A DNA stretch of 64,000 nt, from IMG/VR virus record IMGVR_UViG_3300027851_000017, positions 9,303 through 73,302 of that record. One strand, written 5' to 3'. The notes beneath the pieces are model-generated. The model worked only from the letters and a program-made list of their open reading frames with translations, was not told where the DNA came from and did no database searches. Shown here one piece after another: positions 5,101-49,789 of the stretch. Position numbers and translations under genes: made by a program. How positions within the stretch are numbered: the stretch's first letter is position 1; each line of letters begins with the position of its first letter. Source of the stretch: a virus.

Positions 5101-8100
5101 CGGGGCGGCTGGGGCAACTGGCGCGGCAGGCTCAAACGCGACAGCCTATTGGCTTGTCACCAGCGCACCCGCTGTGCAGAAGTCGGTGGGCGGTGTCTAC
5201 ACGCCGTCCGTTGTCACGTACTCGTCCATGTCTGCCACGGGGACCGCCGCCCCCGCTGCATATGCTGGCCGGTTCATCATCGCAACCTCGACGGACGGCA
5301 CTACCTACACAGACCAGTACACCTCCGCAGCAAACGAGTCATCCAAGGCATTCACGATCCCTGCGAACATCAAGACGGTGCGAGTGCGCGCCTACCTGGC
5401 AGGCGGCACGACCACTCTGCTTGATGAGCTGATCACCGCTGTGGTTTCTGATGGAGCCACGGGTGCGACTGGTGCGACGGGACGCTACGGTTTGAATTTT
5501 GCAGAAGCGAAGTCCATGTTCACTGACCCGACGTTTCAGGTCGGGAGCAACTCAGTAGGCTTGTACAACAACGCGGGCGGCGGGACGGTGACGCATACGC
5601 GGGAAGCTAGGCAAACAGACTCTCCATTTACTGACTCTGGTTTCAACATGAAGATTAGCAATACTGGGGCTGCCAGCCCTGGTATTGGCGGTTTCATCCA
5701 CTCGTTTAACGGCAGAGCGAGCGCAGTATTTGTTCAGCGAATTGTCGCAAAGATTCCTGTCGGCTACACGATTGAGCAAGCCACCAACGCAATCGGAGAT
5801 GGGGCCACTAACGAGTGGATCACTCCGCAGGCTGGTACTGGCAAGTTTGAGGAATACATCCTAGTTCGTCGTTGCGGCGCAACCGGCACGTTCAGCGGCT
5901 CAGGGCATATCTACTTGAACGGTGCTGCAGGCTCTGCTGGCGCTCCAGTCAACTGGTACGTTGCGTATGCTGCGACTTACGACTTCACAGCCGTGGGCTT
6001 TGGAGCCGTCACGGCTGTGTTGTCGAATGAGACACACACCATTCCAACTGACAGTGCAGGCAACAACGGCAACTTCACAGGTAGTGCCACAACGGTGACG
6101 ATCTACAACGGCACGACAGACGACTCGGCCAATTGGACTGTCGCGGCAACCCCGATTGCTGGAGTGACTGGCTCTCTGGTCGGTAAGACCTACACGGTCA
6201 CTGCGATGACTGTGGACACAGGTTATGTGGACCTGGTTGCATCTCGTTCCGGATACGCAAGCGTGACCAAGCGGTTCACGCTTGCTAAGTCAAAGGCAGG
6301 TGCAACAGGTGCTTCCGGCGCTACAGGTGCTGCTGGTGCTCAAGGGCCCTCAGTCGTTGTGACACCAGATCGCGTGACCACCTTCACAGCTACAGACGGT
6401 ACTCTTGACGCATCGCAGGCAAACATCGTCTTCACAGCCGCTGTCTCTGGCGTTGCAAGCCCTACCTATGTGTGGTCCTTCTCAGGCTTCCAGACAGCAC
6501 CCACCAACTCAGGTACGTCAACTCAGACGATTACTGCCGCCCAGTTCGGAACAGCGAAGTCGGCCATCGTGACCTGCACAGTCAGCGGCACGTATACAGA
6601 CAAGGTGACCATTGTTCGCCTTGAGAAAAGTACGGCTGCCGCTGGGGCTACTGTAGGGGCTACATGGGGCACGAATATCTCAGGGCAGCCTGCTAACAGT
6701 ATCATCTATAACAGTTCCGTAACACTGGCTGCAGACGGCACTCTTAACGGCGCTGGTGGCGGGCAGGTCACACTCCCTGGCATGGGACTGTCCAGTTATA
6801 GAGTTGTTGCGGCTGGCTACACCGCCACAAACAAACCCACCGGCGCAGGCCTCTACGACGCCAAGACTGGTGGGCTTCTCGTCGGTCTTGCGTCCATGTA
6901 TCGGGTGGTGAAGATTCACAGGACTACCGGTGTGCTGACCAACGTTGGTGGTTGGAATGTGTTGGCTGGCGGTACAAACTCTGCGGATATGGCGGCTGCA
7001 CTGAATGCCATCGGCAATGACCATATCGTCGTTGTATTCACGAACGATGAGCCAGCAGGCAATCGCCTTACTGGCGGGTTGCCCGCTGCAATGTACCGCT
7101 GTGGAGCAAGTCGTGGAGTGTTCGGCTCGTCGTCATTCCAGGGGAGAAGTGCCTACGCCCTGATCGGCATTGCCGGGTGCGGGGAAGGCAACGGGGCTGA
7201 GTTCTACCAGGGCGAAATCTACGGGGACGCGAACGCATGGATTGACGCTTCGTTTTCCATCATTGGCGGAAACCTTGTCGGTGTCTCGGGAAGCTATACA
7301 CCGAGAACATTGACTGACTACGGCTACACAGGGGCATTAGACGCCAATAATACCTACGTCGATGCAAACGGTGCAATTCAGGGCGTAAGCAGCGGAAGCG
7401 GTACCGCAGTGAATAACGCATTCTTAGATACGTTGACATTCACTACGACAAACGTCACTGTTTCAGGTAACACTTTCAAGAAGACGGGCGGCGTGCAGGG
7501 TCAGTGGGACGCACAAGCCTACACAAAGGAGAGTTACACGCTTGGAGCCTACGCATCGTTTAGTCCGGATCAGTCTACTGGAAATAGTATGGCAGGGTTG
7601 AACACTGACCCAGCTACGGATGCGAGCTACTCGTCCATTGACTATGCGGTGTACTTTGCCAACGGCACAGTCACGATCTATGAGTCGAATGTATCCCGTG
7701 GGAACTTTGGAACTTACGTTGCCGGGGACATTTTTGGCGTGACCTACGATGGTGTGAACGTCCGATACTATAAGAATGGTGGACTGCTACGAACAGTCGC
7801 AGCAACCATTTCTGCACCACTGTACTTTGACTCGTCCATTTACACTCTGAATAACTCCATCTCCAAGGTGAAGTTTGGGCCTATGTCGTCGAGCTCGTGG
7901 AGCAGTATCGGAGGGACTGGAAAACCTGCTGATAATGCCACCGTAGGTGCTCCAACAGGGACTTATGTAGGCGGTGTGCTCGCAGAAACAGTTGCAGGGA
8001 AAGCCGATGGTGCCTTACAAAAAGCAGGAGACGCCATTATCGGGCCAGTTACCTTCGCCACCAATGGGGGGATCCTCGCTGCTACGGATGCAGATAACGG

Positions 8101-9284: not shown

Positions 9285-9899
9285 ATGAGTAACATTAGTA
9301 AGCTAGCGCAAGTAACTGAGTTAGGTAAGCCGCTTTGTGTGTTTGAGCCTTTTGAGGGATTGCCTTTTGGTAGCGGCGATATAGACTCAACTACAGGAAT
9401 TAGATATATAACCGCTCCGCCAGATATTAGCGAGTATGTCTTACTTACAGAGTACTACTACTTACAGAATAGCTGGGTACATGTAGGCCTGCCTCCGTCT
9501 ATGTGGCATACAGTGTCACCTCAGTCACTACAATGGGAGTTACCTAATCTAGCAGAGGCTAGGCTCTTTTACTTAGAATCCTTAAAAGCCAGCAGAGACA
9601 CCAAAGAATTCAGCCCATTTACATACAACGGCATGACCTTTGACGGCGATCTTGACGCCAAGCGCCGCCTTAGCGTCCTGGTTTCTGCTGCTAAGTCTGC
9701 TATTGCTGCTGGCTACAGCTTCACCAAGGACTTCACGCTTGCTGACAACACCGTTGTCCAGCTCACTGCTGAAGACTTCATTGGCATTGAAATGGCAAAG
9801 CTCTGGCAGGTTGACGTTGCTTTCCAGGAGTATCGTCTGAAGAAGGCCGCGATCGAAGCAGCCGCAACTTTGGAAGAGCTTGAGGCCATCACTATTTAA
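9285..9899 (+). CDS. hypothetical virion protein (204 aa); C-terminal part GC-rich
   Basis: ORF with upstream AAGA..ATG spacing. GC-rich 3' half. Confidence 0.4.
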   Translation: MSNISKLAQVTELGKPLCVFEPFEGLPFGSGDIDSTTGIRYITAPPDISEYVLLTEYYYLQNSWVHVGLPPSMWHTVSPQSLQWELPNLAEARLFYLESLKASRDTKEFSPFTYNGMTFDGDLDAKRRLSVLVSAAKSAIAAGYSFTKDFTLADNTVVQLTAEDFIGIEMAKLWQVDVAFQEYRLKKAAIEAAATLEELEAITI

Positions 9900-11418: not shown

Positions 11419-11769
11419 ATGGATTTCTCATCCGTACAGATAGCCGAAACAAGCGGCTTAGTAGCTGGCGCTTTAGTAGCAATCGCCTTTGGTATGCAAA
11501 AAATGCTAAAGAATTGGAAAGAGACCAGCACAGAAAGTTCCATTCTAGATATGATGCATACAGAATTAGGCAGAATGTCGCAGCAAAATATAGTATTAAG
11601 TTCAGAACTTAATAAGTTGCAGGTGGAGTTAATAACTTTAAATAAAGAGCTTATAAAGCTTACTACTGAAAACCAACGACTGCATAGTGAAGTAGGAGCA
11701 TTAACGGCTGAAATTAATAAGCTTAAAGCTTTTCTACCTATAAGAAAGCAGCACAATGGAACCAATTAA
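11419..11769 (+). CDS. coiled-coil protein (116 aa)
   Basis: Heptad-like LNKLQVELITLNKELIKLTTENQRLHSEVGALTAEINKLK. Confidence 0.4.
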   Translation: MDFSSVQIAETSGLVAGALVAIAFGMQKMLKNWKETSTESSILDMMHTELGRMSQQNIVLSSELNKLQVELITLNKELIKLTTENQRLHSEVGALTAEINKLKAFLPIRKQHNGTN

Positions 11770-19916: not shown

Positions 19917-19920
19917 CAAA

Positions 19921-19997
19921 CAAAAAAGCCCTATAATCATATAGATTATAGGGCTTTTCTTTTGGCCGTATAGTCACTTCGACTATACGGCTTTTTG
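19921..19997. terminator. bidirectional terminator region (two hairpins) separating the + late block from the - early block
   Basis: Hairpin 1 is aagccctataatc-atataga-gattatagggctt flanked by an A-run and a T-run. Hairpin 2 is ggccgtatagtc-acttcg-actatacggc followed by T5. Confidence 0.7.
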
Positions 19998-30345: not shown

Positions 30346-30898
30346 AAAATCCGTATAATATATTAGACATACCCCACTTTAGCACTCCAGCGTACCTAAG
30401 GTGCTCCTGCGGATGAAACATAGTTTTGAATCTAGTAGCGATGCCTTCTAGTTCCACTATGGCCCCCATTCCAGGGCCCGGCAAAACTTTTAGCACCTTA
30501 TGGCAGGTCAGCTTGGCGCTGACTGCTTTTTTGTACTGGAAAACTTTTCCTGCGCTGTCAATGAACCAGGTAGTAGCCTTTGCTATCTTTATAAGATCGG
30601 CTAAAAAGTATATTGCGCTATTTATCGGGTGAAGTCGCAAGCCGAGTCCTTTCAGGACTAGTCTGCGGCGACTTAGGGAGTTATGTGGGATTGATGTATC
30701 ATCCACTATTCGTATGTTACGCTTCTCTACATTACTCTCAAGGTCGGCGTACTCGGTAAAGTAGTATACTAAGCCGGAAACATTATCTGTCTCCGGCTTG
30801 TTCTCACTTAGCCTGAACACGGGCCAGTTTATCTCCGACAAGTTCATATGTCTTAACCCACTTACCGAAGCTGTAGTCTTGTCCAATTTCTTGGTCAA
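30308..30898 (-). CDS. hypothetical protein (196 aa) overlapping the 3' end of the polymerase gene
   Basis: ORF. Overlaps the pol exon 2 stop region by about 95 nt in another frame; the true start may be at an internal Met. Confidence 0.3.
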   Translation of the reverse strand: MTKKLDKTTASVSGLRHMNLSEINWPVFRLSENKPETDNVSGLVYYFTEYADLESNVEKRNIRIVDDTSIPHNSLSRRRLVLKGLGLRLHPINSAIYFLADLIKIAKATTWFIDSAGKVFQYKKAVSAKLTCHKVLKVLPGPGMGAIVELEGIATRFKTMFHPQEHLRYAGVLKWGMSNILYGFYEEPFKPSRRRV

Positions 30899-31392
30899 CT
30901 CCTACAGGGAACCCTTGAATGTTGCAACCACGATCACGCTGTGTATTGCGGCGTAGGATTTCGCAGTACTCTTCTACCTGCTCATCCTTAACAATTGCCA
31001 CAATCGAGTCGTGTACTAGCATGAAGATTTTAGCGTCTAGGCCCTTAGCAGCAATCTCATCTGCCGTGTCGATAGCTCCAAGCAAGTTCATGTCACTAGC
31101 TAGGGACTGGACTTCCGCGTTAATACCGCTACGCACTTCGTGTGAGGCGATGCCCTTATCAGAGCTAAACACGTTAGGCAGGCGACGCTTGCGACCGAAG
31201 AAGCTATAAGTGAAACCATTAGCTTCAATAAACTTCTTACGCGAAATCAACCACTTCTTCAGCTGACTGAACTTAGTGAAGTAGTCTTTAATGTTATCTT
31301 CAGCTTCTTGCAACGAGTAGTACTCGCCTGTAGCCTTAGTAACAGATTCGGCAACCTTAGCTGGCCCTGAACCGTATAAGATACCGAATGTG
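30804..31392 (-). CDS. DNA polymerase I (family A), 3' portion (exon 2): motif B distal half and motif C
   Basis: Frame is open upstream of the listed start through ...CTFGILYGSGPAKVAESV. Motif C is VHDSIV. Confidence 0.7.
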
Positions 31393-32615
31393 CAGTTATG
31401 TTACGTGTTACACGGTTATGTAACACTCTTTATATTTCTATAAAGCTCGGACTATATCTTATATAAGTTCAATAATATTCTTCAAATCTTTTACTGACTG
31501 TACAAATAAAAAGATTTGACCATTAGATTCTACTAAAATTCGTTTATCCTCTATATTAGAGAAGTAGCCTTTATAGTCTGCCTTAAAGTTTGATACTTCT
31601 AGCCATATAGACCCTATTTTAAAATCACATACCCATTTACGGTCTGTAATGAAATAGTCGCTATACTTTACGTGAAGTAGCGGAGCCTTATGCTCGATAA
31701 CTTTATAACAGTCTAGCTCAAACTGTGACCCAAATGTGATGCCGTTATAGGTAACACGCCTATCAGATGGACGACAATTAGGGCAGGTAGCTCTCAGCTT
31801 ACACTGCGGGTGTGTAATTCCAGTTAATACGGTTGTATACTCGGTATTACAAGCAGTATGTTTTAGCGTAATTATACCGGAGTTAGATGTAGGGATATCT
31901 GACACTATTAAAGCATCTAATCTATCTAGAACTAGCTGGGCTAGTTCTACCTTACGTTTTGCCCACGGCAGGTTGCCGCTTTTACATAGCGGGCAACCTA
32001 GTTTACTACCTTGCATAGAGGTTATACTAGTTTTATGCTTATTACCGCATGACCGGCACTCTAGCTCTACTATATCTCTATTACACTTAAGACTATGTAT
32101 ATCAGATAAGATAATATACCCTAGTCGTTCTGCTTCGATTACTACCCGCTCCGGTGCTGATTTTGGCTTCTTGTAGCTTGAATTTAGTAGTTTAATAAGC
32201 TCGCTACACTGTAGTCCATACTTAGATTTAAGAGTCTGCCTGGATAGTCCTGGCGGATAATCTTCTAAATACGCTACTACGTTTACTGGTATTGGCTTAT
32301 TATTATTTACATAGTAGTGCCTTATGGCCTCTACTACGCTATCAATATTATTGTTCATATATTCCCCCATTTCGAGCGACCTTTCGCCCTACGTCTTTCG
32401 ACTAGTCTCTGGACCTTCCTCCACCTTATAAATAATTATATCACATTGGCGGCATGCCAACAAGACTAAATTTAAGGTGGAGTATTGGCTGCTGATTTCC
32501 CAATTCTCAATATTTTCAAGCATTCAAGCTCGCTATTACTAGCCACTTTGTAGCTATTGAGACTCTAAGGGGGTTCCAGCAATTAGAGGGATTTATAGGC
32601 AACCAGTTTTAGTTA
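31393..32615 (-). mobile_element. about 1.2-kb intervening sequence (putative group I intron with homing-endonuclease ORF) splitting the DNA polymerase gene
   Basis: Pol part 1 stops with TAA right after RQAAKAIN. The frame of part 2 reopens about 1.2 kb downstream at FGILYG. The interval contains a 303-aa endonuclease-like ORF. Confidence 0.55.
31459..32370 (-). CDS. intervening-sequence ORF, zinc-finger endonuclease-like (303 aa)
   Basis: Multiple CxxC pairs (CRSCGNKHK, CPLCKSG, CPNCRP), an N-terminal HTH-like region and a C-terminal nuclease-like block (ITFGSQFELDCY ... DFKIG). Family assignment is uncertain. Confidence 0.45.
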   Translation of the reverse strand: MGEYMNNNIDSVVEAIRHYYVNNNKPIPVNVVAYLEDYPPGLSRQTLKSKYGLQCSELIKLLNSSYKKPKSAPERVVIEAERLGYIILSDIHSLKCNRDIVELECRSCGNKHKTSITSMQGSKLGCPLCKSGNLPWAKRKVELAQLVLDRLDALIVSDIPTSNSGIITLKHTACNTEYTTVLTGITHPQCKLRATCPNCRPSDRRVTYNGITFGSQFELDCYKVIEHKAPLLHVKYSDYFITDRKWVCDFKIGSIWLEVSNFKADYKGYFSNIEDKRILVESNGQIFLFVQSVKDLKNIIELI

Positions 32616-34321
32616 ATCGCCTTCGCTGCTTGACGCAGCTTACTAAACAAAGTCTTAACTTCGTCCACTTCACATGGCAAGTTAAACACCATCTTGGCAA
32701 TCGTGCTGTGCAAGTCACCGCCAGTCTTAAACACTGCTTGCAGATTTTTGTCACCAGAAAGAACCGCAGCGTAATAAACTTCCGCCGTTGTCAAGTCTTG
32801 TGAAACGATCTTGTAACCTGGCGGTGCTACAATGCCGCCCTTGATAATAGGATCGTCTCGCGGAATCTGCTGTGCGTTGAACTTACCACTACTAGACAAG
32901 CGCCCAGACGTGGTGAAGATCATATTGAAGTTAGTACGAATACGCCCGTCACGATCTACCTGAGGCAGAATCTTGGAGATATACGTACTTCTAATCTTCT
33001 CAAGCTGCCGAATAGTTAGCAGTGCCTTAGGCATTGGATGCTCTTCAGCTAGCTCTTTAAGAACTTCAGCATCTGTAGAGATAGCGCCAGTAGCAGTCTT
33101 CTTGCCAGTAGGCTGTAGCCCAATATAATCAAACAGCAGCTTACGCAGCTGTAATGTACTATTAGGGTTAAAAATCTTACCTTCCGCAGCCTCAAAGTCG
33201 TGTACTTCCTTAAACGTGTACAAGTACTCCTTAGCTGCAGTAATCTCGTCCTCTAGATACAGGCTAGAAGCTGCTAGTCGCTCCACACTAATAGGGATAC
33301 CTACTTCCTCCATATCCATAAGGAACAGAGTTCCACGGATCAGTAGGTCACGATACACCTTATTGAACTTAAGGTTATCACGCACAAGTGGCCAGAACTT
33401 CTGGAACAGTGCATACGTTACCGCCGTGTCGATAGACGCGTATTCCGAAATAATATCAAACGGAATAAGGTCGTAGGTGAAATCGTCTTGAAGAACGCCG
33501 TACTTAGCACAGTACTCTTTCTTAAATTCCTCAAGAGGCGAGTCATAATCACCGTAGTCCGTGTACTTAAGGGCTAGGTGCTTTAGACTATGGCTGTCGT
33601 TCTCGTCCAGAACATAATGCAACAGCATTGTATCGTGAACTTTATCACGAGGAAAGTCAATATTAAGATGATACTTAATCATCTTAAAGTCGAACTTCAT
33701 ATTGTGGAATACAGGAGTAAACTCGTTAGAGATTCGCTGTAGTAAGCTAATGCATACATCATCCAAGCAATCTGTTAGGATATACCGACCCTGGCGTTCC
33801 TTATAGGTGAGTGATAGCCCTAGGACATACCCGTCTCGCGGATACAGGGCTGTAGTTTCAGTGTCCCACGCAACAAATTCTTCCGCATTCTCTAGCACTT
33901 CACGAAGGTAACGCTTTGCCTCCTTAAGGTCGTCAATACCAGCAAAATCACCGTGCGTTCCTACAAGTGAAGTACCTTCGTAGATACGCATTAACTTGTC
34001 TGTCGCACGCTTGAAGTCTGGCTTACCTTCAGGCTTAAAGGAAAGCATGGCAGGATTAGGCATACAGACAAACTTGTCATTAACAAGCTGCCCTGCCATA
34101 TTAGTCACAGAAGTTACCCCTGCGAAGTGCTTCGAGGCTTCGGCACCGATAAGAATAACTAAGTCGTACGGTTCAGGATCGAACTCTAGTGTAACATCCT
34201 TCTTTAGCAGCTTAGTAATAGGTACATCACTAAGATGGAAGTGCTCAAACTCAAAAGGGAAGTGATCAGAGTACCGTGTGCGATTCGGGGCTTTATCAAT
34301 TAGTGCTACGCGTTTACTCAT
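32609..34321 (-). CDS. DNA polymerase I (family A), 5' portion (exon 1): 3'-5' exonuclease and polymerase N-terminal domains up to motif B
   Basis: Exo I motif WDTETT, Exo II/III regions and polymerase palm motifs. Ends ...RQAAKAIN*. Confidence 0.8.
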   Translation of the reverse strand: MSKRVALIDKAPNRTRYSDHFPFEFEHFHLSDVPITKLLKKDVTLEFDPEPYDLVILIGAEASKHFAGVTSVTNMAGQLVNDKFVCMPNPAMLSFKPEGKPDFKRATDKLMRIYEGTSLVGTHGDFAGIDDLKEAKRYLREVLENAEEFVAWDTETTALYPRDGYVLGLSLTYKERQGRYILTDCLDDVCISLLQRISNEFTPVFHNMKFDFKMIKYHLNIDFPRDKVHDTMLLHYVLDENDSHSLKHLALKYTDYGDYDSPLEEFKKEYCAKYGVLQDDFTYDLIPFDIISEYASIDTAVTYALFQKFWPLVRDNLKFNKVYRDLLIRGTLFLMDMEEVGIPISVERLAASSLYLEDEITAAKEYLYTFKEVHDFEAAEGKIFNPNSTLQLRKLLFDYIGLQPTGKKTATGAISTDAEVLKELAEEHPMPKALLTIRQLEKIRSTYISKILPQVDRDGRIRTNFNMIFTTSGRLSSSGKFNAQQIPRDDPIIKGGIVAPPGYKIVSQDLTTAEVYYAAVLSGDKNLQAVFKTGGDLHSTIAKMVFNLPCEVDEVKTLFSKLRQAAKAIN

Positions 34322-46920: not shown

Positions 46921-47122
46921 CGCTAAGCGTCTCTAGGACGCCCATATACGCTAGCACTAAGGAGTACAGGGTATGTGTTGGGATTACCGAGTCAGGAAGG
47001 TCACGAATTGGTGTATCGTCATCAACATTAGCGACGATATTTGTAGAGATTGTACTAGCCACTACAAGGTTATCTTCCAAGAACTGTCGCTGCTCCCTGG
47101 TAAAGTAGACTTTCTTGCTCAC
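46874..47122 (-). CDS. hypothetical protein (82 aa)
   Basis: ORF only. Confidence 0.25.
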   Translation of the reverse strand: MSKKVYFTREQRQFLEDNLVVASTISTNIVANVDDDTPIRDLPDSVIPTHTLYSLVLAYMGVLETLSDAGIQVTNITNNTIH

Positions 47123-47391
47123 ACAAACACCTTTGTAATGTTTGACATACCTTCCGGGGTAAATCGACGGAAGCGGTTTGCCAGGTCATATTTAGCCATA
47201 ACTTCCGCAAGCTCGCGCTGCTTAGCGTCGAACACCTTACGGTATTCTTCGAGAAACTCTGGCATATCGTCAGGGTTCAGTTCGCTAATGTCAATACCGA
47301 ACACTACGCTCGTAGGCTCAGATACGACTAGAATATCACGCTTGGATACGTCACCACTGGCCTTAGTATAGTCGAAACTTGCGATTTGCAT
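47119..47391 (-). CDS. hypothetical protein (90 aa)
   Basis: ORF only. Confidence 0.3.
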   Translation of the reverse strand: MQIASFDYTKASGDVSKRDILVVSEPTSVVFGIDISELNPDDMPEFLEEYRKVFDAKQRELAEVMAKYDLANRFRRFTPEGMSNITKVFV

Positions 47392-47442
47392 ATTAGCCTT
47401 TATGTGTCAATCTAAGCAATAATTATATTATGATTAAGCAGA

Positions 47443-47721
47443 TCAATCAAGTTTATAATTTTCGTCGTCTACTAGAACTACTTTTTGTAGTCCGGTACGT
47501 GCGGCTTCTTCAAAGGCCGGAATTAGTAGAACTGCCAGCCAGAACGGAGCAACTACCAGGTTAATTAGAAATGCTGTAAATGCGGATAGCTTTGGGTAGC
47601 TAGTGAACGCATTCGCAATGTTTTTGTACTTGGCCTCTTGCATCATCGGCCATAGCAAATGCACTAGCGAGTACAGCGATAGTGCAATGGCGGCTGCTGC
47701 GTAAATAAGTAGAAATGTCAT
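47443..47721 (-). CDS. small membrane protein (92 aa)
   Basis: Two hydrophobic helices. Confidence 0.3.
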   Translation of the reverse strand: MTFLLIYAAAAIALSLYSLVHLLWPMMQEAKYKNIANAFTSYPKLSAFTAFLINLVVAPFWLAVLLIPAFEEAARTGLQKVVLVDDENYKLD

Positions 47722-48129
47722 TTAGAAGCGCGCAATATCTTTAATTGCGAAACTAACCTTCTGAGACAGAACCGTGGGCTTCTTCTTCTCAGCCTTGCGT
47801 AGATTTGCAAGGTACTCTGCTGGCAGTGCCAAAGTACGCAGGGCATCACCACTAACGATATGGTTAGAGCTAAACACTTCCTTAGGAACGTGCTTACAGA
47901 ACTTCTTCAGCAACTTAGCTGTACGAATCTGCGACGCCGACCACTGAGGGGTAGTAGGAGTGCCACGACGGTATGACACATTGGCCATAGCGGCCTGGAT
48001 TTGCTCAGCGTTACCAGGGCTGCGCTTCAGTGCGCGTTCCAGCTTCTTAAGGCGGTTAGTCTTCCACTTATTGGTAGCCTTGTAAGCCGATTGGTAGCCT
48101 TGCTTGGACTTGCTTTGTGATTTAGCCAT
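47722..48129 (-). CDS. basic protein (135 aa)
   Basis: Lys/Arg-rich N-terminus. Confidence 0.3.
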   Translation of the reverse strand: MAKSQSKSKQGYQSAYKATNKWKTNRLKKLERALKRSPGNAEQIQAAMANVSYRRGTPTTPQWSASQIRTAKLLKKFCKHVPKEVFSSNHIVSGDALRTLALPAEYLANLRKAEKKKPTVLSQKVSFAIKDIARF

Positions 48130-48159
48130 AGATTTTAGTTATTTACAACTTGTGAGAAT

Positions 48160-48195
48160 ATATAATTATAGCAGAGTTAGAACCGCCGAGCAACT
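48160..48195 (-). promoter_or_regulatory. early promoter (- strand): TTGCTC - 17 - TGcTATAAT
   Basis: Reverse complement reads ...TTGCTCGGCGGTTCTAACTCTGCTATAATTATAT. Extended -10. Confidence 0.4.
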
Positions 48196-48203
48196 TAGAA
48201 TTT

Positions 48204-48608
48204 TTATTCGATAAAATTACCGAACATGGCGATAAGCGTCTTTGTAGGCTCCGGGGTGCAGTAGATCGGCACAAGAATATTCTGGCCTAGCGAGATAAGG
48301 TCTTCCACTCGGGCAGCACCAATCTTACGACTATACTGCTCGTCAGGTCGGCAGTAGGCAACTGCTACACGAGCAAAGATACCGCGCGGATTACCTACAG
48401 CGTCTCTAATGACTGGCATGTAGCCAATAGTAAGGCCGCCTTTGCCAGTGCGCTTATTAAAAAGATGGACAACCCGAATTGGGTTAACCTTGACCATGCC
48501 GATAGGGGTATTAGTGTGTTCTACGTTCATTTTATTTAAGGTATGTACTATAAAACGAAAAAGGCTCGTTGTATTCACAATTATACAGTGAAACAGCGAG
48601 CCTTTCAA
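48204..48608 (-). CDS. hypothetical protein (134 aa)
   Basis: ORF only. Confidence 0.3.
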   Translation of the reverse strand: MKGSLFHCIIVNTTSLFRFIVHTLNKMNVEHTNTPIGMVKVNPIRVVHLFNKRTGKGGLTIGYMPVIRDAVGNPRGIFARVAVAYCRPDEQYSRKIGAARVEDLISLGQNILVPIYCTPEPTKTLIAMFGNFIE

Positions 48609-48618
48609 GACTATAATT

Positions 48619-48921
48619 TTAGAACTTAGTCAGTGTGGCGGTAGGGATGTATGCCCCACCCTTAACTTCAACGAAGAAGAATGTTTTACCTGGATTCAGT
48701 CGGGCCAGACGTTCGCACTCCGAACGTGCGTCAGCCGCAGAGAAATGCTGCGCTGGATCACGGGCAAAGCTAACACCAGTAGATGGTGCGATGCTGCCGA
48801 CAATAAATGAACCAGTGGTAATAGTAGTTTGAGCTTGAGCCATTTTAGTTTCCTTAGTGTTAGCTGCTAGAGCGTTTAATTCGTCGAATAGGTCAAATAT
48901 GTTAAGGTACTGTTTTTCCAT
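48619..48921 (-). CDS. hypothetical protein (100 aa)
   Basis: ORF only. Confidence 0.3.
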   Translation of the reverse strand: MEKQYLNIFDLFDELNALAANTKETKMAQAQTTITTGSFIVGSIAPSTGVSFARDPAQHFSAADARSECERLARLNPGKTFFFVEVKGGAYIPTATLTKF

Positions 48922-48923
48922 TT

Positions 48924-49214
48924 TTACAGAGTGATCCAGCTAGTATCGTTACCAAATCGTAGTCCATCGTGCTTGATAGGGTCGTAGGATTCAAAGTGCC
49001 CGCTAATATTTTCGTCAGTATCTACATTATCTTCCTCAGTACCTTCAGGGTCTGGTGGGTAGATGCCGAACGATTCAGCATTCTGACAAGCCGACTCCCA
49101 GGCGTAGTCATCGAGTTCTTTCTGAGTAATGTTATCAGGAACTAGACAGAACTCTGTTGCGTCGGTACCTATAGTATCAGTACACAAGCGCAGCACCATC
49201 TTTTTGTATTCCAT
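48924..49214 (-). CDS. hypothetical acidic protein (96 aa)
   Basis: ORF only. Confidence 0.3.
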   Translation of the reverse strand: MEYKKMVLRLCTDTIGTDATEFCLVPDNITQKELDDYAWESACQNAESFGIYPPDPEGTEEDNVDTDENISGHFESYDPIKHDGLRFGNDTSWITL

Positions 49215-49291
49215 CTTGCACCCTTTATATCAGCGAATAAGTATTATTATAGACTGTTTTGATACTATAAGCAACTATGAATTTTTATTTG

Positions 49292-49367
49292 TGGTATGAG
49301 GTAGGGGACTCGAACCCCTACTAAGTGGGTGGAAGCCACCTGTGCTACCGTTGAACACTAACCCCAC
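49292..49367 (-). tRNA. tRNA-Gly (UCC)
   Basis: Cloverleaf readable by eye. Anticodon loop cuUCCac, T-arm aggggTTCGAGTcccct, CCA encoded. Acceptor stem has two G-U pairs. Confidence 0.7.
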
Positions 49368-49370
49368 ACA

Positions 49371-49682
49371 TTAGTTACTAAACTTATCGTAAGTATCCAT
49401 AATAGGAAATCCGTCATCCACATATGGAGCGACTTCCTCTTTATAATACTGCTCTCTAGCCGCGTAACCTGCGGCGTCTGCAATTTTATCGTTGACTTCG
49501 GCGCTGAAGGAAAATAGACCGGCTTTACTTGCCCATATCAAATACTCATGGTGATCTTCAAGCACATCCTGTACTCGGCAGCCCTGTAGCTTGCCCTTTG
49601 GGATCAGATCGCTAAGACTTAGGGTAGATGACTTTAGTTTGGTAAATGATTTAGACATAAAAAGGCGTGCCGCTAAGGGCAC
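49371..49682 (-). CDS. hypothetical protein (103 aa)
   Basis: ORF between two tRNA genes. Confidence 0.3.
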   Translation of the reverse strand: MPLAARLFMSKSFTKLKSSTLSLSDLIPKGKLQGCRVQDVLEDHHEYLIWASKAGLFSFSAEVNDKIADAAGYAAREQYYKEEVAPYVDDGFPIMDTYDKFSN

Positions 49683-49698
49683 GCTATTTAGGCTTATA

Positions 49699-49789
49699 TG
49701 GAGGTAGGTAAAGGAATCGAACCCTCACCGAGTACTAGTCAGTGGCGACGGATTTCAAATCCGTTTGCATGCCATATGCGCTACCTACC
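49699..49789 (-). tRNA. tRNA-Ser (UGA), long variable arm
   Basis: Anticodon arm acgga-tttgaaa-tccgt, long variable arm, acceptor ggtaggt/acctacc, CCA encoded. Confidence 0.75.

Follow-up and report, generated by a model that had tools for sequence, protein, structure and literature searches.

Group I introns carrying endonuclease open reading frames (ORFs) have been known in the family A DNA polymerase genes of phages since SPO1. The described examples, which are introns of the IA2 type, include those of SPO1, SP82 and Bastille (I-HmuI and I-HmuII as well as I-BasI), Pf-WMP3 (I-PfoP3I), the T7-like phages PhiI and W31 (I-TslI), phiL7, and Shewanella phage KASIA. The subject of this article is a comparable interruption in the gene for the DNA polymerase of a T5-like phage (Demerecviridae), which is located on a 64,000-nucleotide (nt) stretch of IMG/VR virus record IMGVR_UViG_3300027851_000017 (positions 9,303 to 73,302 of that record), referred to in its entirety as the window. 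The gene is split inside motif B by an insertion of 1223 nt (32615..31393), and the overall best explanation, to which a probability of about 0.9 is assigned, is a mobile group I intron that splices to give a 764-amino-acid (aa) polymerase and that holds a putative homing endonuclease gene in its P8 element. Coordinates without further label are those of the window, where all features described below lie on the minus strand, and a slash within a sequence marks a junction.

The window intron has in common with the described polymerase introns an in-frame stop codon at or near the intron start and the presence of helices P7.1 and P7.2, and it is unlike them in its T5-like host, in the position of its ORF in P8, and in the nature of the encoded enzyme, which is not an HNH enzyme. 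In the numbering of E. coli Pol I, the known insertion sites are 674 (SPO1, SP82, Bastille and Pf-WMP3), 676 (phiL7), and 881 (PhiI and W31) (PMC3428280), and splicing of the KASIA polymerase intron has been shown by reverse transcription PCR (PMC8541194). The site in the window, codon 760 in the O-helix, differs from all three. The literature search, the coverage of which was incomplete, returned no description of a T5-like polymerase gene with an intron, a result that does not prove absence.

Two further systems are relevant for comparison. The td, nrdB and sunY introns of T4 (I-TevI, I-TevII and I-TevIII) possess an IA2-type core with P7.1 and P7.2, and the window intron, which has both helices, comes closest to this type. 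Intron ORFs of T4 are reported, by Gott et al. in 1988, to use promoters of their own within the introns, with their translation signals sequestered in the long pre-mRNA. Compared with T4, the promoter predicted in the window is of the sigma-70 type and lies in the P6 loop rather than being a late promoter, the sequestering helices, P3 and P8, would belong to the ribozyme core itself, and the endonuclease families are different. The second system is I-Bth0305I, the Vsr-like EDxHD enzyme from a group I intron that interrupts recA in Bacillus phage 0305phi8-36, which has no detectable sequence similarity to the window ORF, and whose DNA-binding region contains NUMOD/helix-turn-helix motifs in contrast to the zinc ribbons of the latter.

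The closest relatives in isolated phages are found in the Vibrio phages JSF10 and JSF12 (NC_042074, NC_047882), which contain a homologous intron at the identical site (GCGAU/UAAC ... AAAUG/CACAUUCGG) with an ORF that is homologous to the window ORF at 44% identity; unlike the window intron, the JSF10 intron has no P9.1 and carries an extension of the P1 loop. In the public records of both phages, two "DNA polymerase" coding sequences (CDS) are listed together with a "hypothetical protein" (GenBank) or an "HNH endonuclease" (RefSeq), and no intron is annotated. The present analysis indicates that each phage has a single intron-containing polymerase gene and an endonuclease with a PD-(D/E)XK fold. 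At this locus of JSF10 (46975-50756 of NC_042074), and likewise in JSF12, a 37-aa hypothetical CDS is additionally annotated inside the intron core.

Split Polymerase Gene and Its Junction

The 5' portion of the gene is contained in a 570-aa ORF (34321..32609), which ends ...RQAAKAIN before a TAA that stops the frame two codons inside the insertion. Exon 1 (32616..34321), the boundary of which is set by the intron-less allele on contig L028, comprises the 3'-5' exonuclease domain as well as an N-terminal portion of the polymerase domain (Pfam PF01612 and PF00476, the latter at model positions 24-214), terminates in the middle of motif B in the O-helix (...RQAAKAI), and contributes the first two bases of the interrupted Ile codon. 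We take this codon to be Ile-760, between K758 and F762/Y766 in the Klenow numbering of motif B. Downstream of the insertion, a frame opens straight after a stop codon as HNCTFGILYGSGPAKVAESV and reads (H)NCTFGILYGSGPAKVAESV... through VHDSIV to the stop at 30804. Exon 2 (30804..31392), identified by translation, matches PF00476 at model positions 215-379 and supplies the remainder of motif B (...TFGILYGSG), motif C (VHDSIV), the C-terminus and the stop codon, so that the DNA_pol_A model is divided between the exons at 214/215.

When U 32616 is joined to the base that follows G 31393, the message reads ...AAG GCG AU/C ACA UUC GGU... and the protein ...RQAAKAITFGILYGSG, and the predicted spliced ORF of 2295 nt encodes 764 aa with zero internal stops. 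The predicted protein aligns in one piece, with 98% coverage, to uninterrupted T5-like phage polymerases, the alignment that had been proposed as a check of the insertion point. The polymerase is a family A enzyme of a T5-like phage. Its best identity is only about 49%, which means that the phage has no close sequenced isolate, and a megablast search of 50,697 phage records with the entire gene gave no match.

The most direct evidence for the boundaries is provided by natural alleles. An uninterrupted polymerase of 764 aa that is 100% identical to the predicted spliced product (P0115) is encoded on contig L027, which is 98% identical to the window at the DNA level. On contig L028, the polymerase gene (P0117, 97% identical) is contiguous at 11706/11707, exactly the point at which 32615..31393 is inserted in the window; the sequence across it is GCGAT/CACATTCGG, with CGTCAAGCAGCGAAGGCGATCACATTCGGTATCTTATACGG as the intact insertion site. 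Because the L028 sequence equals the predicted ligated junction, the intron boundaries are those put forward in an earlier interpretation that was made from the letters and ORF translations only (the sequence-only reading). That reading had described an N-terminal ORF ending in RQAAKAIN and TAA and a frame reopening about 1.2 kb later on the same strand and running through VHDSIV, both of which are evident in the ORFs and translations, and had proposed splice points restoring motif B, which agree with the 764-aa ORF, the division of the Pfam model, and the intron-less alleles.

These reading frames also bear on the proposal that the insertion is removed at the protein level as an intein, or that it represents another mobile element such as a group II intron or an insertion sequence. 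An apparent intein is present elsewhere in the polymerase of relatives (an in-frame C...HN/C insertion on contig L012), but the insertion in the window is out of frame and contains many host-frame stops, the Pfam search revealed no intein, reverse-transcriptase or transposase domains, Rfam gave no group II match, and a group I core is demonstrated (see below). Intein, group II intron and insertion sequence are ruled out by reading frames, domain content and RNA structure, and their joint probability is practically negligible.

Conserved Group I Structure of the Insertion

The identification of the insertion as an IA-type group I intron (31393..32615), for which splicing is predicted from the conserved structure and boundaries, is supported by partial matches to Rfam, by covariation throughout the core, including the P3/P7 pseudoknot, by the splice-site nucleotides, and by the presence or absence of the element relative to L027 and L028. 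The element begins with UAACUAAAA... and ends with ...AACUG, the terminal G being position 31393. Two matches to RF00028 (Intron_gpI) were obtained, one at 32658..32339 (31.2 bits, E 2.4e-5), extending from P1 to the 3' strand of P3, and the other at 31460..31430 (23.1 bits, model positions 221-251), covering J8/7, the P7 3' strand and P9.

For comparative analysis, 21 distinct introns from related loci were aligned after removal of the ORF (532 columns), and splice-site bases were counted in 22 sequences. Without assistance, RNAalifold recovered P1, P3, P4, P5, a three-helix extension of P5 (P5a-c), P7.1, P7.2, P8, P9 and P9.1, with compensatory changes in 52 of 79 pairs. Since this program cannot predict pseudoknots, P6 (171-172/264-265) and the P7 pseudoknot were added by hand before pairs were counted, whereupon 94.5% of cells contain standard pairs, as against 38-43% after a shift of the 3' partners by 1-3 columns, and 54 of the 79 pairs vary in both partners. 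On none of five measures were the observed values reached in 500 shuffles. Pairing in individual helices ranges from 83% to 100%, the latter value being that of P7, where a G-C pair adjoins the bulged nucleotide in all 21 introns, as is characteristic of the guanosine-binding site, and where the pair past the bulge changes from G-C to A-U in four sequences. The U.G wobble at the splice site is likewise present in 21 of 21, with the neighbouring pair of P1 (the helix at columns 4-11/37-44) changing from A-U to G-C in five of them. The rule that a group I intron follows a U-ending exon and itself ends in G, to which the sequence-only reading had appealed, is obeyed without exception, the final base of exon 1 being U and that of the intron G in 22/22 homologues.

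In the window copy, P1 (32597..32622) is formed by the exon end AGGCGAU(U) (32622..32615) and the internal guide GGUUGCCU (32604..32597), with U 32616 opposite G 32603. The 5' part of the core (32363..32591) comprises P3 (32591..32586 / 32368..32363), P4, P5, P5a-c, P6, the P7 5' strand GAGACUA (32409..32403), P7.1 (GUC GAAA GAC, 32402..32393) and P7.2 (32388..32375), the last two with compensatory changes. The intron is assigned to the IA group, closest to IA2, from the location of P7.1 and P7.2 after P7 and ahead of the 3' strand of P3. P8 (31460..32361) closes the loop that contains the ORF, with UAUAUGA (32361..32355) as its 5' strand and UUAUAUA (31466..31460) as its 3' strand; all six of its pairs show compensatory changes (columns 422-427/442-447), and its register in the window copy was shifted by one base by eye. 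J8/7 and the P7 3' strand follow as AAGAUAUAGUCC (31449..31460), in which UAGUCC pairs with GAGACUA at 32409..32403 to complete the P3/P7 pseudoknot. P9 (CUUUAUA GAAA UAUAAAG, 31445..31428) has compensatory changes in seven of seven pairs, and P9.1 (GUGUUACA...UGUAACAC, 31426..31405) in eight of eight. The 8-bp hairpin that had been recognized in the letters near the 3' end (GTGTTACA/TGTAACAC, 31426..31419 / 31412..31405) is therefore identified as P9.1, a helix found in most of the homologous introns and missing in JSF10 and L012. A search of the window for core motifs of further introns found none with the motifs in the correct order.

Several observations weigh against the assignment. Both RF00028 matches fall below the gathering score of 50 bits, and a run of the window at the gathering threshold returned tRNAs only, the intron emerging solely under E-value thresholds; in the comparison with group I covariance models that had been suggested as a check, the family was accordingly recovered in two partial matches and at no point at threshold. 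These low scores are attributed to the division of the core by a 0.9-kb ORF in P8, and an ORF-less intron situated 13 nt away in the relative L005 scores 69.9 bits, above the Rfam threshold. Furthermore, P2 is not evident between P1 and P3 in the intron alignment, and P10 in the window copy consists of only about 2 bp. The absence of a group I core fold, which had been named in advance as a result that would speak against an intron, was looked for, and the core from P3 to P9 was found by covariation.

The same evidence bears on the view that the gene exists in pieces, in which a free-standing endonuclease has been inserted, no splicing occurs, and polypeptides of 570 aa and about 190 aa assemble into a polymerase. 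There is reportedly a precedent in the split nrdA of phage Aeh1, and such an arrangement would be compatible with the in-frame stop that ends exon 1 two codons into the insertion, with the annotation of the JSF10 homologue as two polymerase CDS in both GenBank and RefSeq, and with the sub-threshold Rfam matches. Exon 2, however, has neither a start codon nor a ribosome-binding site at its beginning, opening after a stop as HNCTFG, and the split falls inside the O-helix, between K758 and F762/Y766. Moreover, in the approximately 330 nt of non-coding sequence around the ORF the group I core is complete, 54 pairs are compensatory, and the nucleotides at the splice sites are invariant, a degree of conservation that would be unexplained without splicing. 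A gene in two separately translated pieces is consequently considered very unlikely, and a splicing intron is the preferred interpretation.

Putative Intron-Encoded Endonuclease

The sequence-only reading had noted a Cys-rich, endonuclease-like ORF of 303 aa inside the interval, and such an ORF is found at 32370..31459. Its start is most likely the second ATG, which gives a putative homing endonuclease of 299 aa plus stop (31459..32358), since homologues start there and a 99%-identical copy was called likewise; the upstream in-frame ATG at 32370 would give 303 aa. In the protein, a helical N-terminal region precedes two zinc ribbons, and a predicted nuclease domain (about aa 205-303) occupies the C-terminal end. 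The first ribbon is formed by C105/C108/C126/C129 (CxxC...CxxC) and the second by C174/C196/C199 (C174...CxxC).

An AlphaFold model built with an alignment of 36 sequences has a pLDDT (predicted local distance difference test) score of 91.7, and its C-terminal domain has the topology alpha-beta-beta-beta-alpha-beta, which is that of the PD-(D/E)XK core fold. In this model, E218 is located on helix 216-228 (alpha1), D249 on strand 247-252 (beta2), and E258 on strand 255-259 (beta3), and these three residues are invariant in 36/36 aligned members, which span 35-71% identity. Fold searches returned PD-(D/E)XK enzymes, none of them a His-Me finger enzyme, and the enzyme closest in structure to the modelled nuclease domain is I-Bth0305I. 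The predicted fold and the zinc ribbons thus lend substance to the endonuclease-like character claimed from the letters, and the product is interpreted as a putative PD-(D/E)XK-fold endonuclease with zinc ribbons that would cleave DNA.

Two findings make an active nuclease of this class less certain. The canonical Lys of (D/E)XK is replaced, the motif reading EVS (Ser260), and the nuclease domain has no significant sequence match in Pfam, NCBIfam or PDB. The missing Lys might be substituted by the invariant K276 on the next helix. With the complete ORF, the Pfam, NCBIfam and PHROGs searches gave only weak matches to zinc ribbons and a weak match to PHROG 559/681. A search of 1.84 billion proteins with the nuclease domain alone retrieved only 47 cluster representatives, nearly all of about 290-320 aa and of the same layout.

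Two alternative family assignments were considered and rejected. The HNH identity implied by the RefSeq label of the JSF10 homologue is not supported by any HNH match in Pfam or NCBIfam, and the fold searches give PD-(D/E)XK; PHROG 559, which is named "HNH", is reported to carry a VSR-type fold (PMC11878797). Membership in the family of I-Bth0305I, which is defined by the EDxHD motif (PMC3239194), is contradicted by the lack of an invariant His in the nuclease domain, by the motif E-V-S-N/S-F, and by the absence of a profile match to 3r3p. In place of EDxHD, the window ORF conserves E218, D249 and E258-V-S.

Predicted Expression Signals of the Intron ORF

A sigma-70-type promoter-like element directed toward the intron ORF is located in the P6 loop (32435..32463) and consists of TTGTTG, a spacer of 17 nt and TATAAT, with TGa directly before the -10 hexamer. 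The arrangement TTGACN-17 nt-TATAAT is present in 20 of 22 related introns, the other two having a short P6 without the element, and the spacing of 17 nt is constant even where the spacer sequences are unrelated. The window copy by itself is weak, matching the consensus at 9 of 12 bases, but it has a TGn-extended -10.

The interpretation as a promoter is weakened by the window copy itself, the -35 hexamer of which is poor (3/6); its score is not significant alone, being equalled in 31 of 200 shuffles, and a generic promoter scan of the region yielded nine candidates where 7.0 were expected and picked a shifted register. The argument for a promoter therefore rests on conservation across homologues. 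In addition, the spacer (32457..32444) contains a palindrome, GGCAUGCC, centred on CAUG, the arms of which compensate in many homologues (e.g., CGACAUGUCG), and which could also represent a small RNA hairpin (P6b) or a protein or operator site overlapping the promoter.

The ORF fills the P8 loop, its AUG being part of the P8 5' strand and its UAA overlapping the 3' strand, and its ribosome-binding site, GGGGGA, which lies four bases upstream of the AUG, coincides with the 3' strand of P3. Given these positions in P3 and P8, both translation signals would be base-paired in the folded pre-mRNA.

Related Loci, Intron-Less Alleles, and Mobility

Homologues of the ORF number 114 in metagenomes and one in isolates, that of Vibrio phages JSF10 and JSF12. 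Twenty-five loci with an ORF homologue were fetched, of which a scan of metagenome contigs provided five and look-ups of exact proteins more. In every one of them, the ORF sits in a T5-like polymerase gene split at the same codon (residue 569/570), a recurrence not due to chance, and the gene order is constant, comprising primase, polymerase exon 1, ORF, polymerase exon 2, a small ORF and helicase.

Among polymerases that are at least 97% identical, alleles with no intron (L027 and L028), one intron (the window) and two introns (L021) coexist. Contig L021, which is 98.4% identical to the window at the DNA level, contains the same intron together with a second one 13 nt into exon 2. In a comparison of the window with L021, 4 of 1223 intron positions (0.33%) are mismatched, as against 44 of 1859 (2.4%) in exon 1 (Fisher p 1.6e-6), and 13 of the exon mismatches crowd into the region 30-90 nt upstream of the insertion site. 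Low divergence of the intron beside clustered exon differences is what would be expected from recent spread between diverged genomes with co-conversion of the flanks, an indication drawn from sequence comparison and not a proof. The distribution of the intron is sporadic, and its history is decoupled from that of the exons, as in a mobile intron.

In the intron-less allele of the closest relative, L027 (1810-1820), two synonymous changes flank the insertion site, one on each side, giving GCA AUU ACA in comparison with GCG AU/C ACA in the window (32620..32616 / 31392..31390); the variant site reads GCAATTACA. These changes could reflect a target variant resistant to cleavage or the edge of a co-conversion tract.

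The pattern among alleles also helps to judge the possibility that the intron splices and is immobile, its ORF being inactive or domesticated (as a maturase or a DNA-binding regulator) and its inheritance vertical. Such a history would fit a nuclease domain that lacks the canonical (D/E)XK Lys and any sequence match to characterized nucleases, and the occurrence of all 25 copies at one site is compatible with vertical descent. It is opposed by the coexistence of intron-plus and intron-less alleles among polymerases that are 97-100% identical and by the roughly 7-fold lower divergence of the intron relative to the adjacent exon in two phage variants, with exon differences clustered beside the site. 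The ORF is also full-length, and its acidic residues are invariant in 36/36 members, which points to selection on the protein. Immobility is regarded as unlikely, and mobility of the intron remains the favoured reading.

Proposed Mechanism

In the proposed sequence of events, the end of exon 1 (GGCGAU) would pair with the internal guide GUUGCC in the pre-mRNA to form P1, after which an exogenous guanosine bound in P7 would attack after U 32616. The freed exon 1 would then attack after the terminal G 31393 and be ligated to exon 2 as AU/C ACA, restoring ...RQAAKAITFGILYGSG in the polymerase. In mixed infections, the most likely role of the endonuclease is to cleave polymerase alleles that lack the intron, close to the insertion site, and repair of the cut allele would copy the intron into it (homing). 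Its expression is apparently uncoupled from that of the polymerase; a transcript started at the P6-loop promoter would lack the 5' strand of P3, so that the ribosome-binding site would be freed, a scheme that follows the logic of the T4 intron ORFs.

A more far-reaching proposal, whose chance of being correct as a whole is put slightly under even, holds that the ORF founds an uncharacterized lineage of homing endonucleases of about 47 clusters, defined by tandem zinc ribbons and an E...D...E-x-S core unlike that of I-Ssp6803I or EDxHD enzymes, that it is expressed by a sigma-70 promoter embedded in the ribozyme together with a P3/P8 translational lock, and that the O-helix of T5-like polymerases is a hotspot for two competing or cooperating intron/endonuclease pairs 13 nt apart.

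Other Introns, Probable Inteins, and Features Nearby

The second group I intron located 13 nt downstream occurs in L021 (from about 3083 onward), L005 (4477-4735) and L012 (3898-5005), and also in L014 and L018; the window phage is without it. Between the two introns, a micro-exon of 13 nt, C(A/U)CAUUCGGNAUU, remains within motif B. The copy in L005 has no ORF, and that in L012 contains a 271-aa ORF with two LAGLIDADG-like motifs recognized by eye (GFIAADGC and GMIDGDGT).

On L012 (257-2701), and also on L014, the ORF of exon 1 has 814 aa, of which about 370 form an in-frame insertion in the Exo III motif (PYA/CLSKN...FVHN/CGDTDS) that includes an LLGDG motif. This insertion resembles an intein with a LAGLIDADG endonuclease, in which case one intein and two introns reside in the polymerase gene. 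On L026 (4538-5900), precomputed Pfam matches to Intein_splicing and LAGLIDADG_2 point to an intein in the helicase gene, which lies downstream of the polymerase. In the T5-like contigs L008-L010 (about 5976-6356) and L011 (1-220 and 3195-3440), core motifs of group I introns or partial Rfam matches were observed away from the motif B site, which suggests additional introns in neighbouring genes.

Elsewhere in the window, 26 tRNA genes covering most amino acids, with three for tRNA-Met, are located at 49292-61778. Clusters of tRNA genes are typical of T5-like phages. A few unusually long tRNA matches in Rfam (e.g., 54677-54817 and 59747-59852) were not called by ARAGORN. A sub-threshold Rfam match to CopA-like antisense RNA at 19919-19986 (37 bits where the gathering score is 60; E 0.006) is probably due to chance.

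Implications

Mobile group I introns in essential phage replication genes are a well-known kind of selfish element, and current understanding is not overturned by the present locus. What is modestly new is the combination of phage family and insertion site, the uncharacterized zinc-ribbon/PD-(D/E)XK endonuclease lineage, and the conserved predicted promoter embedded in a ribozyme. The Demerecviridae, and with them a fourth site at codon 760 of the O-helix, are added to the known intron sites of family A polymerases. With regard to annotation, T5-like genomes, including the RefSeq entries of JSF10 and JSF12, list two genes and an "HNH endonuclease" where the evidence points to one intron-split gene. 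The endonuclease has no relative of known function at the sequence level and could serve as a new scaffold for site-specific nucleases.

For the biology of these phages, alleles with zero, one and two introns in nearly identical genomes constitute a natural series suited to homing experiments. The placement of the promoter, the ribosome-binding site and the AUG in P6, P3 and P8, respectively, would represent a compact arrangement by which expression of the endonuclease may be kept from disturbing the folding of the ribozyme.

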